NCBI GenBank assembly: GCA_017429505.1
Contig: JAFROW010000010.1
Coordinates: 2,996 to 66,995, forward strand
Direction of reading: 5' to 3'
Length of the DNA: 64,000 nt
Origin: Clostridia bacterium
GTDB lineage: Bacteria; Bacillota; Clostridia; TANB77; CAG-508
Numbering within the stretch: the first letter of the stretch is position 1; the number at the start of each line of letters is the position of its first letter. Below the pieces are notes generated by a model, which worked only from the letters and a program-made list of their open reading frames with translations, searched no databases and was not told where the DNA came from. Both the position numbers and the translations under genes were made by a program. Below, one piece after another: positions 553 to 62,086 of the stretch.

Positions 553-1299
553 TTACTTATTCTTCGAAACTTGTATATGATAGCAAAATTCCTCTAGTAT
601 AGAAGTTGGTGTAATTTTCGCCAATAATTTAGTACATTTTATAAAAAAGCCCGGAATTATCATAAACTTATTTTTTAACATTTTATCTATAGCGTATTTT
701 GCAACATATTCACTTGAAAGCCCTTTTGCCTTAAATTTAACATTTGCGACATTATTAAAATTTGTATTAACAGGTCCTGGGCACAATAAACTTATTTTAA
801 CATTAGATTTTTTCTTATTTAATTCTTTTTTTATAGCTCTCGTTAAAGCTACAACATAATTCTTTGTTGCATAATATGTTGCCATCAATGGTCCTGGCAT
901 AAATCCTGCAATTGATGCAACATTTAAAATATATCCTTTATCATTTTTTGTCATGTCTTTTAAATATAGCTTGGTTAATATATGAAGTGCCTCAATATTA
1001 GTTTCAATCATTGAAATTTCTTTATTTAAATCTGTTTCCGTAAAATTTCCAAAATCGCCAAATCCTGCATTGTTTATTAGTATATCTATGTCTTTTACAT
1101 CTTCATATAGTTTATAACAATTTTCCTTTTGACTTAAGTCTAGTGATATAACTTGTGTGTTTGTATTAACTTCGTTTTTTATTTTTTCAAGTGCTTCTTT
1201 ATTTCTTGCAACTATTATCAAATCATATCCTAATTTAGATAAATATCTTGCCATATCTCGTCCTATTCCTGAAGAAGCTCCTGTTATCAATGCTCTCAT
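553..1299 (-). CDS. short-chain dehydrogenase/reductase (SDR) family oxidoreductase
   Basis: N-terminal Rossmann motif ITGASSGIGRDMA. NNAG and YxxxK-type motifs (YYATKNY). 248 aa, typical SDR length. Confidence 0.85.
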   Translation of the reverse strand: MRALITGASSGIGRDMARYLSKLGYDLIIVARNKEALEKIKNEVNTNTQVISLDLSQKENCYKLYEDVKDIDILINNAGFGDFGNFTETDLNKEISMIETNIEALHILTKLYLKDMTKNDKGYILNVASIAGFMPGPLMATYYATKNYVVALTRAIKKELNKKKSNVKISLLCPGPVNTNFNNVANVKFKAKGLSSEYVAKYAIDKMLKNKFMIIPGFFIKCTKLLAKITPTSILEEFCYHIQVSKNK

Positions 1300-2054: not shown

Positions 2055-2987
2055 TTATACTATTTTTTCAAAAATTCTAAGTTTTGCACTTTTTGATCTT
2101 GTATTTTCTTCTTGTTCTTCTTTGCTTGCTATTATAGGCTTTTTGTTAACAACTTTTCCTAATTCTTTTGCTCCACACACACAATATGGTAAATCTTTTG
2201 GACAAGTGCAAATTCCTTTTGCTTTGTTAAATGCATTTTTTACTGCTCTATCTTCTAATGAATGAAATGTAATTACACATAGTCTTCCTTCAGGCGCTAA
2301 AACATCTATACAATCTGCAATAGTTTTTTCTAATGGTTTTATTTCATTATTTACTTCAATTCTAATTGCTTGAAAAGTTTTCTTTGCTGGGTGTCCCCCA
2401 TTTTGTTTTGATTTTTGTATTGAATTTTCTATTATTTCTACTAATTCTTTTGTAGTTTCAATTTCTTTTTGTTTTCTATAAATACATATATTTTTAGCTA
2501 TACTTCTTGAAAATTTTTCTTCCCCATATTCATATATAATATTTGCTAAATCTTCCTCTTTATATGTATTAACAATAGTTTTAGCAGTAAGAGTTTGATT
2601 TTTATCCATTCTCATATCTAACTCATTTTCTCCTAAATAGCTAAAACCTCTATTCCTTTCATCTAATTGATATGATGAAACTCCTAAATCTAAAAGAATT
2701 CCATCAACTTTTTCTATTCCTATATCTTCTAAAATTTCTTTAATATCATCATGATTTCCATGTATATATTTAACATTTTTAAATTCTGACAAATTATGTT
2801 TTGCAGCTTTTAGAGCTTCTTCATCTCTGTCTATTCCTATTAAAATTCCTTTATCTGACAAATTTCGCAAAATCTCCTTGCTATGCCCTGCTCCTCCGAG
2901 TGTTCCATCTACATAGATTCCATCTTTTTTTATATTTAACCCTTCTATACTTTCATTTAATAGTACTGGTTTATGTTTAAATTCCAA
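2055..2987 (-). CDS. rsmH: 16S rRNA (cytosine1402-N4)-methyltransferase RsmH/MraW (TTG start)
   Basis: HKPVLLNE...DGTLGGAGHS SAM-binding motif at the N-terminus. C-terminal SAKLRI tail. GAGGTGG RBS upstream of the TTG start. Confidence 0.95.
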   Translation of the reverse strand: MEFKHKPVLLNESIEGLNIKKDGIYVDGTLGGAGHSKEILRNLSDKGILIGIDRDEEALKAAKHNLSEFKNVKYIHGNHDDIKEILEDIGIEKVDGILLDLGVSSYQLDERNRGFSYLGENELDMRMDKNQTLTAKTIVNTYKEEDLANIIYEYGEEKFSRSIAKNICIYRKQKEIETTKELVEIIENSIQKSKQNGGHPAKKTFQAIRIEVNNEIKPLEKTIADCIDVLAPEGRLCVITFHSLEDRAVKNAFNKAKGICTCPKDLPYCVCGAKELGKVVNKKPIIASKEEQEENTRSKSAKLRIFEKIV

Positions 2988-3491
2988 TTATTCCACCTCG
3001 TTTTTGTATAGTATATTAGATTTTTCTAATATATAGTTCAAGCAACTGATAATTATTGTAATACCAGCTGCTTGATATGTAAGTAATTATTCTTTGGTAT
3101 AAATTGGATACAAATTGTCTTTAGTAAGTTCTCTTTGGATTTAAAGCTTTATTCATTTTTCCTATGAATATTTTCTTACGTTTTTTTACTTCTTATGTGT
3201 ACTTTTGCATACTTGCTTTCTTAAGTATATTTTGTTTATCAACCTTCTTATGTATGTTTTGTTTCCTTATAATAACTTTACATTGGTATATTTTGTTTCT
3301 TATATCTTTTTCTTAAGTTTTTTTAGTTTTCTATATTTCTTTCGTATTCTATGTTCCCCTTTATTTTCTTTTGTTATTTCGTTATTTTCTTTAGAAATTT
3401 ATATAAACCTTTTTTGAAGGATTATATACATAGGTTTGACGATTTTCTGTTAATTTTTTATACCTTAAATTGCTATTCTTTTATACTATTT

Positions 3492-7430: not shown

Positions 7431-7970
7431 TTAATAGTTTTCAGCTTTTATTTCAAAATAACTTTGTGGATGGCTACATACAGGGCAAACTGCTGGAGCT
7501 TCTTTTCCAACTACAATATGTCCACAATTTCTACATTTCCAAATCTTGTCTCCATCTTTACTGAATACTAGTCCATCTTGTAAATTTTCTATTAATTTTT
7601 TGTATCTAGCCTCATGCTCTTTTTCAATTTGTCCAACTGCTTCAAATAAATATGCAATTCTGTCAAATCCTTCTTCTCTTGCAGTTTTTGCAAATCCATC
7701 ATACATATCTGTCCATTCAAAATTTTCTCCTGCTGCAGCTGCATTTAAGTTTTCTAGTGTTGATGGTATTTCTCCTCCATTTAATAACTTAAACCAAATT
7801 TTAGCATGCTCTTTTTCGTTAAGAGCTGTTTCTTCAAATATTGCTGCAATTTGTTCATATCCTTCTTTTCTTGCTTTACTTGCAAAGTATGTGTATTTAT
7901 TTCTTGCTTCTGACTCTCCTGAAAATGCTGCCATTAAATTTTTTTCTGTTTGACTTCCTTTTAATTCCAT
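7431..7970 (-). CDS. rbr: rubrerythrin
   Basis: Ferritin-like diiron ExxH motifs (EARNKY, EKEH x2) plus a C-terminal rubredoxin-like CxxC...CxxC (CRNCGH...CPVCSHP). 179 aa. Confidence 0.9.
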
Positions 7971-8098
7971 AATTTTTCAACCTCCATATTTATTTTTAAT
8001 GATTATACCATTTTTATTCATATATTTCAAGTAAAATTTTTCACAAAAATATTATGTTTTTTTCTTACATAATTAATTAAATTTTTGCATAAAATTTT

Positions 8099-8127
8099 TT
8101 GACAAATGCAACATCATAGTGTATAAT
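8099..8127 (+). promoter_or_regulatory. strong sigma-A promoter (TTGACA -17- TATAAT) driving the candidate sRNA
   Basis: Consensus -35 and -10 hexamers with a 17-nt spacer on the plus strand. Confidence 0.6.
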
Positions 8128-8134
8128 TAATTAT

Positions 8135-8230
8135 AACAAAGAACACAATAAAGTGAACGAGGTAACACCGACAAACGAAATTGGTGTGTTGGAATTGTTT
8201 AACCAATTCCCTTCGTTCACTATTTTTATT
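8135..8230 (+). ncRNA. candidate ~95-nt structured small RNA (promoter + nested hairpins + intrinsic terminator, no ORF)
   Basis: Closing stem gtgaacgagg / ccttcgttcac. Inner hairpins cacc..ggtg and ggaattg-tttaac-caattcc. U-run tatttttatt follows. No plus-strand gene downstream. Confidence 0.4.
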
Positions 8231-8303
8231 ATTTATACAATTTTATTCTCGTTCCATAAACCTTATTGACATTTACACATTTTTCTATTATCTACAATCA
8301 TTA

Positions 8304-8606
8304 TTACGTTTTCTTCTTCTTTAATGGAACAACCTTTAAAGTATATCCCATTGGATATAGGAGTCTCATTAATGTTGTATACTGCGGAGTTCTAGCAAAA
8401 TTTTCTATTTTAGCAATAGATGATTGAATTATTCCCGTTTTTTCGCTTAACTGCTGTTGAGTTAAATTTGCATTTTTTCTTGCTTCAATTGTAGCTAATA
8501 TAATTTGTTTTTCAAGTTCTATTTCTTCAATATCTTCTGGTGTAAAATCTGCTTCAATTTCCTTCTTTACATCTTTCCATTTTTTAAAATTATACATTCT
8601 ACTCAC
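8304..8606 (-). CDS. HigA-like antitoxin (XRE-family HTH protein)
   Basis: HTH_XRE core LTQQQLSEKTGIIQSSIAKIE. It lies downstream of the toxin gene (inverted HigBA order) with an 8-nt overlap. Confidence 0.7.
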   Translation of the reverse strand: MSRMYNFKKWKDVKKEIEADFTPEDIEEIELEKQIILATIEARKNANLTQQQLSEKTGIIQSSIAKIENFARTPQYTTLMRLLYPMGYTLKVVPLKKKKT

Positions 8607-8952
8607 TCCTCTTTTTATAATCTTCCAAGTATCTCATTGCTTTTTCAATTTCCTTTTTAGGTGTTTTTTGAGTTTGTTTCATAAATACACTTAATAGTAC
8701 AAATCTATTATTACACCAACTTGCAAATAATATTCTGTCTCTTAATGGTCTTAACTCCCATATTTCTTTATCTAGCTTTTTTATATATGGTTCTTTAAGT
8801 TTTAATCCTTCTTGTGCTAATAGATCTATATACATATCTATTTTTTTAAGTTTTTGTTTATTCTTTTTGTTTAAATTTTGCCTTAATTGTTGTATATATT
8901 CATATACCTCACTGTTTCCATGTATATCTTCATAAAAATCTATATCGTACAT
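8599..8952 (-). CDS. HigB/RelE-superfamily toxin (phage Gp49-like). The true start is M11 of the tracked ORF
   Basis: Core IWELRPLRDRILFASWCNNRFVLLSVFMKQTQKTPKKEIEKA matches the Gp49/HigB family. An AAGGAG RBS sits 7 nt upstream of the ATG at 8950-8952. Confidence 0.7.
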   Translation of the reverse strand: MYDIDFYEDIHGNSEVYEYIQQLRQNLNKKNKQKLKKIDMYIDLLAQEGLKLKEPYIKKLDKEIWELRPLRDRILFASWCNNRFVLLSVFMKQTQKTPKKEIEKAMRYLEDYKKRSE

Positions 8953-8980
8953 TAAGTGCTCCTTTACTTGCTGTATTTTC

Positions 8981-9009
8981 ATTATACCTTAAAAGGAATA
9001 ATATGTCAA
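8981..9009 (-). promoter_or_regulatory. sigma-A promoter for the toxin-antitoxin operon (TTGACA -17- TATAAT)
   Basis: Consensus hexamers on the minus strand. Palindromes CTATCGATAG and GCACCTAAGTGC lie just upstream and are possible operator sites. Confidence 0.55.
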
Positions 9010-9113
9010 TACATTATTTTAAAAATTAAAAAAAAGACACAACTATACATAAGTATAATCATGCCCCTATAATATTATTTACCTATCGATAGCACCTAAG
9101 TGCCATTTTTATC

Positions 9114-9707
9114 TTAATTATTTTGTGTAGCATCTGTAGCACTTGCAGCATTTGCAACTGCTCCATTAAATGGTATAAATTTCTCTACTACACTTGTCTT
9201 TATGTCATCACTTCCCCTAAATAACATAAATGAATTATTAATTTTTGTATCTACTAATTCTTCCATTTCATCTTTATTTGATTGTTCTGCTAAGACTAAT
9301 TCGCTAACTAGAATTTGTTTAGCATTAACTAACATTTTTTTCTCACCTGTTGAAAGTCCTTTTTCTTTTTGTTTAAAACTTAAATTTCTAACAACATCTG
9401 CTATCTCGTAAATGTCTCCACTTTTTAGTTTATCCATATTATCTCTATATCTTTTGTTCCAATTTTTTTCCATTTCTGTTTCATCTTGAGATAATACTGT
9501 AAATACCTTATCTGCTGAAGTTTTATCTATAATATTTCTTACTCCTACTTGTTCTGCCTTATCTACTGGTACCATTACCTTTACTTCACCAGGCATTTTT
9601 AATATATAATATGCTTGTTTTTCCCCTAAAATATCTTTTTCTTCTATTGCATCAATTACTCCTGCTCCGTGCATTGGATATACTATTTTATCTCCTATAT
9701 TAAACAT
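9114..9707 (-). CDS. CarD/CdnL-family transcription regulator (RNA-polymerase-interacting)
   Basis: N-terminal FNIGDKIVYPMHGAGVIDAIEEK matches the CarD_CdnL_TRCF domain. Confidence 0.75.
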   Translation of the reverse strand: MFNIGDKIVYPMHGAGVIDAIEEKDILGEKQAYYILKMPGEVKVMVPVDKAEQVGVRNIIDKTSADKVFTVLSQDETEMEKNWNKRYRDNMDKLKSGDIYEIADVVRNLSFKQKEKGLSTGEKKMLVNAKQILVSELVLAEQSNKDEMEELVDTKINNSFMLFRGSDDIKTSVVEKFIPFNGAVANAASATDATQNN

Positions 9708-35769: not shown

Positions 35770-35988
35770 TTATTTTGCTCTCCAAGTAATTCTACCACGA
35801 TTTAAATCATAAGGTGAAAGTTCTACTTTAACCTTATCTCCTGGTAGTATTTTTATGTAGTTCATTCTTAGTTTTCCCGAAATATGTGCTAATATTTGAT
35901 GCCCATTTTCAAGTTCTACTTTAAAATTTGTATTAGGTAAAGCTTCTACTACTATACCTTCAACTTCTATAGTGTCTTCCTTTGCCAC
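35770..35988 (-). CDS. infA: translation initiation factor IF-1
   Basis: 72 aa S1-like, [34 protein letters not shown]. Confidence 0.95.
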
Positions 35989-36069
35989 TTTCTCGCCTCC
36001 TTAAAGAGCTTTTTAATATGTAAACTATGATTTTGTCCATATTAACTTCTATATTATATACTATTTTTT

Positions 36070-36840
36070 TTATATTGTCAAGATTTTTGGCTCATTTTCT
36101 GTAATTAAAATTGTATTTTCATAATGAGCTGCCAAACTACCGTCTTCTGTAACGATTGTCCAACCATCATCAAGCTCTAAAATATTGTGTTTTCCCTGTA
36201 TTACCATAGGCTCAATTGCAAGTGTCATACCTGGCTCAATTCTTGGTCCTTTTCCTGCTTTTCCGTAATTTGGAATCTCAGGTGCTTCATGCATTTCTCT
36301 TCCAATTCCATGACCTTCGAATTCTTGAACTACTGAATATCCATTTGCTCTTACAAATTCACCTATTGCATGAGATATATCTCCAATTCTGTTTCCAGGT
36401 TTTGCATATTTTATTCCTTCATAAAAAGCTGCTTTTGTAACATCTACTAACCTTTGAGCATCTTTTGAAGTTTTTCCTCCACATATAAATGTACGTGCTG
36501 CATCTCCATTAAAGCCATTTTTTAAAATAACTGTATCTACACTTACTAAGTCCCCTTCTTTTATAATTTTGTTTTTTATTGGAACTCCGTGAATTACCTC
36601 ATCATTTACAGAAATACATGTTGCATGCTTATATGGTGGTACACCTTTTATACCTGGATCATATCCTATTTGTGCAGGTATTCCCCCTAAATCTCTCATT
36701 ATTTTTTCAGCTCTTCTATCTAGCTCAAAAGTTGATATTCCTGGTTTTATTTCTTTTTCTAATAATTCATAAAATTTTGCTACTATTTTGCATACGTCTT
36801 CCATTAATTTTATTTCTTTTTCATTTTTTATTGATATCAT
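36070..36840 (-). CDS. map: type I methionine aminopeptidase
   Basis: 256 aa with metal-binding D, D, H, E, E residues in pita-bread fold order. Confidence 0.95.
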   Translation of the reverse strand: MISIKNEKEIKLMEDVCKIVAKFYELLEKEIKPGISTFELDRRAEKIMRDLGGIPAQIGYDPGIKGVPPYKHATCISVNDEVIHGVPIKNKIIKEGDLVSVDTVILKNGFNGDAARTFICGGKTSKDAQRLVDVTKAAFYEGIKYAKPGNRIGDISHAIGEFVRANGYSVVQEFEGHGIGREMHEAPEIPNYGKAGKGPRIEPGMTLAIEPMVIQGKHNILELDDGWTIVTEDGSLAAHYENTILITENEPKILTI

Positions 36841-61928: not shown

Positions 61929-62086
61929 TTTGAATTCCTCGTTTTATTTTAAAATTGTATAAGAACAAAAAGAGCATGATTAAGAATTGAAGATTTTGCT
62001 CTTCATATATGCTCTATCTTTGTTTTTCATATTAAAAGAAGATTATTCTAGATCTTAGAATAACCCCCTCTTATTATTTTTTATAA

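Follow-up and report, generated by a model that had tools for sequence, protein, structure and literature searches.

A predicted small RNA between carD and rubrerythrin

The window analysed here, 64 kb of contig JAFROW010000010.1 from an uncultured Clostridia bacterium, carries between its carD and rubrerythrin genes a higB-higA toxin-antitoxin operon and, converging on the 3' end of higA, a short forward-strand unit that is the subject of this work. The unit comprises a sigma-A type promoter, a predicted small RNA folding into a three-way junction and a U-rich tail, and is very probably an orphaned member of a family of structured RNAs linked to DUF3800 genes. Its parts, given as coordinates in nucleotides (nt) of the window, are the following.

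8099-8127, + strand: sigma-A type promoter TTGACA-17-TATAAT, matching 12/12 consensus positions
8134-8240, + strand: predicted small RNA of ~95-105 nt, from covariance model R1 and the fold
8135-8151, + strand: single-stranded 5' leader, AACAAAGAACACAAUAA, from alignment A2 (11 sequences)
8152-8162, + strand: 5' strand of the closing stem P1, pairing with 8211-8221
8165-8187, + strand: hairpin P2, from the fold, stem 8165-8171 with 8181-8187 (7 bp), loop CAAACGAAA
8191-8210, + strand: hairpin P3, from the fold, stem GGAAUUG/CAAUUCC, 8191-8197 with 8204-8210 (7 bp), loop UUUAAC
8211-8221, + strand: 3' strand of P1, from the fold and the alignment
8222-8240, + strand: U-rich tail UAUUUUUAUUAUUUAUACA, forming an intrinsic-terminator-like end together with P1

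The promoter consists of a -35 box TTGACA (8099-8104), a 17-nt spacer and a -10 box TATAAT (8122-8127), exactly where the first-pass annotation of this DNA, made from the letters alone, had placed it, and a TG lies one base ahead of the -10 box (gTGTATAAT). Perfect TTGACA-N17-TATAAT matches occur at three sites in the window, compared with 0.05 expected from shuffles, the other two belonging to higBA (8981-9009, -) and infA (36053-36081, -). Both ends of the RNA are predicted, with the start inferred at ~8133-8136 and the 3' end placed in the U-tail. The earlier statement that the folded stretch begins ~8 nt after the promoter is correct for this predicted start but not for the closing stem, which lies 25 nt past the -10 box.

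For 8134-8235 (+), a three-way junction is predicted in which P1 closes P2 and P3, with a minimum free energy of -28.2 kcal/mol compared with -14.8 +/- 3.0 in 200 dinucleotide-preserving shuffles (z -4.46, 0/200 equal). P1 is formed in the window by 11 bp, AGUGAACGAGG / CUUCGUUCACU, including one G.U pair. The nested hairpins and U-run that had been noticed in this ~100-nt unit are thereby borne out as three helices. The reverse strand folds almost equally well (z -4.15), and because both strands do so, assignment of the strand needed comparative data. In every copy of the RNA, P1 (8-11 bp) is followed by 5-7 U, as in an intrinsic terminator, and the run of 5-7 T after P1 is found in 10/10 other lineages. 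The terminator is nonetheless atypical, since P1 encloses two hairpins, and it is consequently not called by a simple terminator scanner.

Downstream of the RNA there is no same-strand gene in the window, and the next gene is always convergent, here as well as at the linked loci, which argues against a riboswitch or 5' untranslated leader. This agrees with the original description of a unit without a plus-strand gene downstream that converges on the 3' end of higA. A promoter-to-terminator unit for a structured non-coding RNA is supported. Overlapping the unit is a 38-amino-acid (aa) open reading frame (ORF) with a GTG start (8153-8269, +), so that the first-pass remark that no ORF exists fails in the mechanical sense. 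With its hydrophobic C-terminus this frame could be imagined to encode a type I toxin-like small protein, and a 3-nt deletion in the allele of a related strain (L004) preserves the frame; however, it lacks a Shine-Dalgarno ribosome-binding site, the GTG start is GCG in two such alleles (L004 and L009), the frame runs through the terminator and it is not conserved in any DUF3800-linked homologue of the RNA. We give this coding alternative almost no weight.

Homologues of the RNA and the convergent DUF3800 gene

A pattern scan of metagenomes returned one true homologue (L012) and one chance match (L011). The L012 RNA is ~75% identical to the window copy, with compensatory changes in all three helices, and converges on a 241-aa DUF3800 ORF (PF12686, E 3e-18) whose protein has at least 194 homologues. 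Genomic context was taken for eight full-length DUF3800 homologues with 56-79% identity (P0005, P0006, P0007, P0021, P0026, P0027, P0077 and P0119), and in 8/8 of these the RNA is located directly 3' of the DUF3800 gene on the opposite strand. The RNA is also found beside the DUF3800 gene of L012 and, intact and scoring 97 bits with R1, beside an internally deleted DUF3800 gene in L056-59. Altogether, homologues are present in 10 other lineages of uncultured gut Clostridia and Bacilli, each of which (10/10) has the RNA convergent with a DUF3800 gene, intact or damaged, the partner protein being 241-255 aa (~248 aa) long. An uninterrupted DUF3800 gene without the RNA was found in 0/6 lineages. 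The first-pass view of the unit as stand-alone is contradicted by this arrangement: all other family members are tail-to-tail with DUF3800, and the window itself keeps the last ~10 codons of such a gene (8229-8264, -).

The DUF3800-linked homologues keep the promoter, as TTGACAAnTG...cTGTATAAT, together with the leader, the three helices and the U-tail, and the promoter pointing into the RNA is kept in position and sequence in every lineage with upstream sequence available. The T-run of the RNA's terminator contains the DUF3800 stop codon at 8/8 loci measured, 4-10 nt from the start of the run. Since this leaves no space for a terminator of its own, the DUF3800 mRNA is predicted to enter the RNA gene.

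The covariation within the family was assessed with 11 distinct RNA sequences aligned with MAFFT (alignment A2), from which an RNAalifold consensus and the covariance model R1 were derived. The consensus contains 20 pairs in three helices, 10/20 of which show compensatory (both-sided) changes, so that the structure first seen in a single sequence is both conserved in the 10 other lineages and supported by covariation. Paired cells make up 97.3% of the alignment's helices, compared with 88.0% in shuffles and 33-46% when the 3' partner is slid, and the covariation of 0.424 exceeds that of shuffles (0.227 +/- 0.023, reached by 0/500) and of slid partners (at most 0.12). G.U pairs occupy 16 cells, whereas A.C, which is G.U on the opposite strand, occupies one; together with the conserved promoter, this indicates a structure selected on the promoter strand.

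Compensatory changes affect 5/8 aligned pairs of P1 and 4/7 pairs of P3, the loop of which is unconserved, while the core of the P2 stem, CACC/GGUG, is invariant and its loop varies in length and sequence. The junction contains hardly any unpaired nucleotides, and the U-tail starts straight after P1. The leader, which is ~20 nt long and single-stranded in the family, has positions that are invariant or almost so across the 11 sequences, and that of the window corresponds to the family motif ACAGA(U/A)CA(C/A)AA plus a 2-nt insertion. With R1, the window copy (8132-8242, +) scores 90.9 bits (E 3e-18), within the 85-109 bits of the DUF3800-linked copies. Repeat searches and R1 located one copy only of the unit in the window. 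A weak R1 match at 61953-62036 (-) is an ordinary terminator hairpin and not a second copy of the RNA.

The genes flanking the pair differ in most lineages and include type I restriction-modification, integrase, PFOR, pta-ackA, a hipA-like pair, IS110 and RepA_N/TnpV. Because of these differences, we conclude from the loci compared that the RNA and DUF3800 are mobile as a unit between unrelated genomic neighbourhoods. A HigBA (Gp49 plus helix-turn-helix) pair is absent among the called neighbours of RNA-carrying lineages outside the window's species, and reverse-transcriptase Pfam families are absent among the neighbours in every DUF3800-RNA locus checked. In a genome contig collection, the exact RNA pattern gave no match and a degenerate pattern four chance matches in high-GC genomes; in a viral contig collection, pattern scans gave no match and then two chance matches, and a DUF3800 alignment search found no relatives. 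Comparison of the window and L024 units with phages and plasmids by blastn recovered AT-rich promoter-like stretches only.

DUF3800 has also been inactivated naturally on two independent occasions, by a DDE_Tnp_1 insertion sequence after ~residue 115 (L052-L055, at least 14 contigs) and by deletion of residues 23-112 (L056-L059, at least 14 contigs).

In five lineages (L022, L023, L024, L033 and L056), the -35 box of the RNA promoter lies at the centre of an inverted repeat, ACATTTGT-TG-ACAAATGT, with 8-bp arms that are perfect in four lineages and imperfect in L023. The window copy, L019, L029, L038 and L042 lack the repeat. Its position suggests that some dimeric regulator may bind it as an operator of the RNA promoter.

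The window copy at a strain-variable site

Immediately around the window RNA, the following features are relevant to its history.

8085-8104: left copy of an imperfect 20-nt direct repeat, TTGCATAAAATTTTTTGACA (repeat family D2, 80% identity, spacing 167)
8229-8264, - strand: remnant of a DUF3800 3' end, ..K V Y G T R I K L Y K stop, the stop being the complement of 8229-8231
8252-8271: right copy of the direct repeat, TTCCATAAACCTTATTGACA, overlapping the DUF3800 remnant
8304-8982, - strand: higB(Gp49)-higA(HTH) operon (Pfam Gp49 E 7e-18; HTH_19, HTH_3)

The remnant shares 7/10 residues with the family C-terminus, ..N I Y G A G I K L Y K, and its stop lies 6 nt into the T-run, inside the 4-10 nt range of the linked loci. 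Likewise, BLASTN alignments of L019, L022 and L024 to the window extend through promoter and RNA and then through 26-28 nt of the DUF3800 coding sequence, to 8258-8260. A tblastn search revealed no further DUF3800 gene in the 64-kb window. As judged from these alignments, the DUF3800 gene of the window is lost apart from its last ~10 codons, and the RNA copy is an orphan. The module is found beside rubrerythrin in two related lineages, L033, where rubrerythrin has 82% nucleotide identity to that of the window, and L056-59 (perR-rubrerythrin), which is why the window relic probably descends from a module long resident at this site, with most of DUF3800 gone and a HigBA cassette now adjacent.

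Many contigs from metagenomes, belonging to the same uncultured Clostridia bacterium, encode the rubrerythrin protein of the window, and ten of these rubrerythrin-bearing contigs (L001-L010) were compared. The carD-rubrerythrin interval (window 7970-9114) is a strain-variable hot spot whose alleles contain nothing, HigBA, or HigBA plus the RNA relic.

L001, L008: HigBA and an RNA unit identical to that of the window
L004, L009: HigBA and a degraded RNA unit, with -35 box TTAACA, two P1 pairs broken, P3 shortened and a score of 78 bits
L002, L003, L005, L007: HigBA, RNA unit absent
L006, L010: HigBA and RNA unit both absent, rubrerythrin present

The segment that varies between strains is ~167 nt long and flanked by the 20-nt imperfect direct repeat, and the 'empty' alleles read GCATAAAAT followed by ATTATTTC. 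This is consistent with loss of the RNA unit from L002, L003, L005 and L007 by deletion between short repeats.

These alleles bear directly on the role envisaged in the first-pass annotation, where the RNA was considered as an independent trans-acting small RNA or as one that controls its HigBA or rubrerythrin neighbours. The window RNA does sit between these genes and converges on higA, and rubrerythrin stands beside the module in three lineages (window, L033 and L056). However, L002, L003, L005 and L007 have both HigBA and rubrerythrin without the RNA, and L006 and L010 have rubrerythrin alone; because both occur without the unit in related strains, neither HigBA nor rubrerythrin needs the RNA. 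In addition, the other RNA lineages have no HigBA nearby and most have no rubrerythrin, whereas DUF3800 always accompanies the RNA, and the higB-higA operon is outside the usual context of the RNA family. Such a role is therefore very unlikely: the RNA looks unrelated to the neighbouring toxin-antitoxin or rubrerythrin genes, and in annotation the window small RNA should not be assigned to the regulation of either.

The presence or absence of a 167-nt segment within a direct repeat would also suit a DNA-level element, such as a recombination site or the end of a mobile element, or a mere bidirectional terminator, neither of which would involve a functional RNA; both strands fold, and the element lies between convergent genes. 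Against this, a conserved perfect promoter is aimed into the element, and the 16:1 bias of G.U over A.C reflects selection on the RNA of one strand. Moreover, terminal inverted repeats are absent, a single copy is present in the window, and the right repeat is DUF3800 coding sequence, so that the repeat is better explained as deletion microhomology. We consider an element without a functional RNA highly improbable. The repeat or mobile-element reading was dropped because a second copy of the unit was not found in the window, and an integron attC-like, hammerhead or purine-riboswitch-like junction was likewise set aside, as the core motifs are lacking, Rfam gives no match and the dedicated promoter marks an RNA gene.

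The window copy is most likely a relic that may still be transcribed. On the side facing higBA, the reverse strand of the structure folds well and is followed by a U-rich run, and it is plausible that, as the first-pass annotation had proposed, the structure also terminates higBA transcripts from the other strand. Helping to terminate this converging transcription may be the only local effect of the window RNA.

Known DUF3800-linked RNAs and a possible restraint mechanism

Eleven structurally unrelated motifs, DUF3800-I to -XI, several of them with terminators, have been linked to DUF3800 (Weinberg 2017, NAR 45:10811, PMC5737381), and their Rfam entries include RF02969, RF02915, RF02967 and RF02968. 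Relative to the gene, these motifs vary in both side and orientation; three RNAs tested in that study, including DUF3800-I, showed no self-cleavage, and "no specific hypothesis" was offered for their function (PMC5737381). DUF3800 itself is reported to have an RNase H-like fold; type VII retrons use it as their effector, and some Cas12a2 systems have it as a partner (PMC7736814, PMC10910872). The RNase H-like assignment rests on this literature, since a search of PDB sequences with the DUF3800 alignment profile gave no match and AlphaFold, given a shallow alignment of 30 sequences, produced a model of low quality (predicted local distance difference test, pLDDT, 57.8). We note that the DUF3800 protein matches the PADLOC candidate defence model PDC-M04A (E 2e-12).

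No catalogued family matched any of the six family members compared with Rfam (the window copy and five linked copies). With Rfam 15 at E <= 10, window 7900-8500 returned one chance match to a plant microRNA only (18 bits) and the linked copies (L012, L021-L024) returned no match, and at gathering thresholds no family was found in the entire 64-kb window. Distant DUF3800 genes from phages and plasmids served as positive controls with the same library, which identified DUF3800-VII (73 bits) in the Ralstonia phage RsoM1USA and DUF3800-VI upstream of the gene in a Pseudomonas phage and a Sphingomonas plasmid. Conversely, R1 does not detect these control RNAs. We read the RNA as an uncatalogued structural class among the DUF3800-associated RNA motifs, the library having been confirmed to contain I, VI, VII and IX.

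In common with those motifs, the RNA is conserved, structured, linked to DUF3800 and, as is often the case, terminator-ended, different clades of the protein having unrelated RNAs; in contrast to them, it is a compact three-way junction of low-GC gut Firmicutes that matches no Rfam model. The closest geometry is that of DUF3800-VII (RF02967), which is also convergent and begins 9 nt past the gene end (L050: gene ends 2253, RNA 2262-2346, -). It belongs, however, to a high-GC proteobacterial phage and differs in sequence and fold, with neither model detecting the other RNA.

Similarities to other RNA-containing systems are likewise partial. The proposed logic, an abundant structured RNA that neutralises a nuclease encoded next to it, is shared with type III toxin-antitoxin systems of the ToxIN kind. 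Whereas ToxI-type antitoxins are tandem repeats located upstream of the toxin on the same strand and processed by the toxin, the present RNA is single, non-repeated and convergent and has its own promoter. In type I systems such as par RNA I/RNA II of pAD1 and bsrG/SR4, a ~100-nt small RNA with a strong promoter is convergent with its partner and overlaps it at the 3' end, and the DUF3800-linked RNA resembles them in convergent transcription and in a terminator region that is shared or overlapping. The partners differ: the toxin of a type I system is a small hydrophobic peptide, whereas the protein observed here is enzyme-like and ~248 aa long. In retrons in general, the non-coding RNA or multicopy single-stranded DNA (msDNA) restrains the effector. 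The type VII retrons (Mestre et al. 2020) are likewise compact and mobile, and in them the DUF3800 domain accompanies a non-coding, structured nucleic acid, but the present loci lack a reverse transcriptase, and the RNA is convergent with DUF3800 rather than upstream of a reverse transcriptase.

We suggest that the RNA would be the non-coding cognate of a DUF3800 nuclease, the two genes together forming a mobile module that serves defence or addiction. The strong promoter would keep the compact structured RNA abundant, and the RNA would bind the DUF3800 protein and hold it in check in the manner of an antitoxin, in parallel to the non-coding RNA and msDNA of type VII retrons, where the same domain is the effector. 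As a second layer, the DUF3800 mRNA would run antisense through the RNA gene and provide cis-antisense control; cis-antisense effects are likely in this RNA class. Antitoxin-like restraint through binding of the protein is favoured because the RNAs vary in position and orientation across DUF3800 clades, leaving the protein as the shared element, because the invariant junction and leader and the maintained helices suggest a recognised three-dimensional shape, because retrons, too, control this domain with a structured nucleic acid, and because decay is asymmetric, the RNA being kept while DUF3800 is deleted or reduced to a remnant (L056-59 and the window). We hold binding-type, antitoxin-like control as the main mechanism with somewhat less than even confidence, and the overall explanation, which combines family membership with this mechanism, appears probable to us.

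The main rival to RNA-protein binding is antisense control. Here the RNA would act purely in cis, as in type I toxin-antitoxin systems: base-pairing to the DUF3800 mRNA at its 3' end would lead to cleavage of the duplex or to transcriptional interference, and the structure of the RNA would serve stability and termination. The position of the DUF3800 stop inside the U-tract of the RNA in 8/8 loci measured and the convergent orientation throughout fit this mechanism well, and the same geometry recurs in DUF3800-VII and in the Streptococcus prophage RNA described below. The other DUF3800 motifs, however, can precede or follow the gene, on either strand (PMC5737381), DUF3800-VI being upstream on the same strand, so that the feature shared among them is the protein; nor would antisense action by itself require an invariant junction and leader or a compensated, G.U-biased three-way junction. 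Pairing with the DUF3800 translation start region was also not found: duplex energies between the leader and the ribosome-binding and start region were no better than those of shuffles at 8/8 loci (z -1.3 to +1.9), and with the full RNA a z of -3.2 was reached in one locus only (L033). Purely antisense control is thus, in our estimation, unlikely, although it deserves more attention than the other alternatives.

Several observations weigh against the binding and restraint proposed above. The constant convergent overlap fits a purely antisense mechanism equally well, and the antitoxin-like model draws on analogy and on decay states that are few in number. The family amounts to 11-12 distinct RNAs from a single DUF3800 subclade (at least 55% identity), L012 was discovered through a pattern keyed on the P2 loop, and for every copy the transcript, its start and its 3' end are predictions from sequence. 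In the window, the 2-nt insertion in the leader, and in L004 and L009 the weakened -35 box, the two broken P1 pairs and the score of 78 bits, indicate that the orphan copies may no longer function and may instead be in decay.

Since 2017, eleven unrelated structures accompanying one protein domain have made the DUF3800-linked RNAs an open puzzle. The class described here is compact and easily synthesised, and its dedicated promoter, the stop codon within its terminator, the persistence of the RNA after the loss of DUF3800 (window and L056-59) and the existence of strains with and without the unit make the puzzle testable. If antitoxin-like restraint is true, it would connect the DUF3800 motifs with the DUF3800 proteins of type VII retrons and Cas12a2-associated systems and would define a new RNA-controlled defence module. 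An orphan RNA might then possibly confer immunity ('anti-addiction') in the window.

In about a fifth of the family (~25/120 listed proteins, as seen from their N-termini), the DUF3800 gene carries an extra C after conserved DES codons, for instance at L012 ~800-850 (-), L019 ~2980-3015 (+) and L024 ~1233-1270 (+). The context is AGT-C-GGA or TCA-C-GGA, with TCT-C and TCC-C inferred from N-termini; the 0-frame codon at the extra C is always the rare CGG, and a stop follows ~6 codons on. The nine codons upstream (MYIxFxDES) are conserved with synonymous changes, and the +1 frame, ~240 codons long, is both conserved and open. Programmed +1 ribosomal frameshifting under selection seems a better description of these genes than pseudogenes. 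Extending the restraint model accordingly, one may envisage a new RNA-controlled nuclease module, retron-like, type III toxin-antitoxin-like or acting by abortive infection without a reverse transcriptase, in which a constitutively made three-way-junction RNA restrains an RNase H-like effector, orphan copies persist for the 'anti-addiction' immunity they give when DUF3800 modules arrive, and effector synthesis is further throttled, in roughly one family member in five, by a programmed +1 frameshift at a hungry CGG codon. This wider scheme is tentative, and we regard it as rather doubtful in its entirety.

A different convergent RNA was observed beside distant DUF3800 genes (27-29% identity) in the Streptococcus prophages Javan291 (L047:2232-2370, -) and Clyde (L046:~2235-2370, -). 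It is preceded by a promoter, which in Javan291 is a perfect TTGACA-17-TATAAT, is predicted to fold into a four-way junction (z -4.27) and ends in a U-tail that adjoins the stop codon. It gives no Rfam match at E <= 1 and may be another uncatalogued DUF3800-linked RNA.

Elsewhere in the window, pheT, infA and other translation genes are present, yet Rfam identifies no T-box or ribosomal leader. The infA promoter (36053-36081, -) is of the ordinary strong housekeeping type, and infA encodes the 72-aa IF-1 (35770-35988, -). The higBA operon is driven by its own perfect consensus promoter (8981-9009, -), and with the ATG starts chosen by gene callers HigA is 97 aa and HigB 117 aa long, compared with 100 and 127 aa for the mechanical ORFs.

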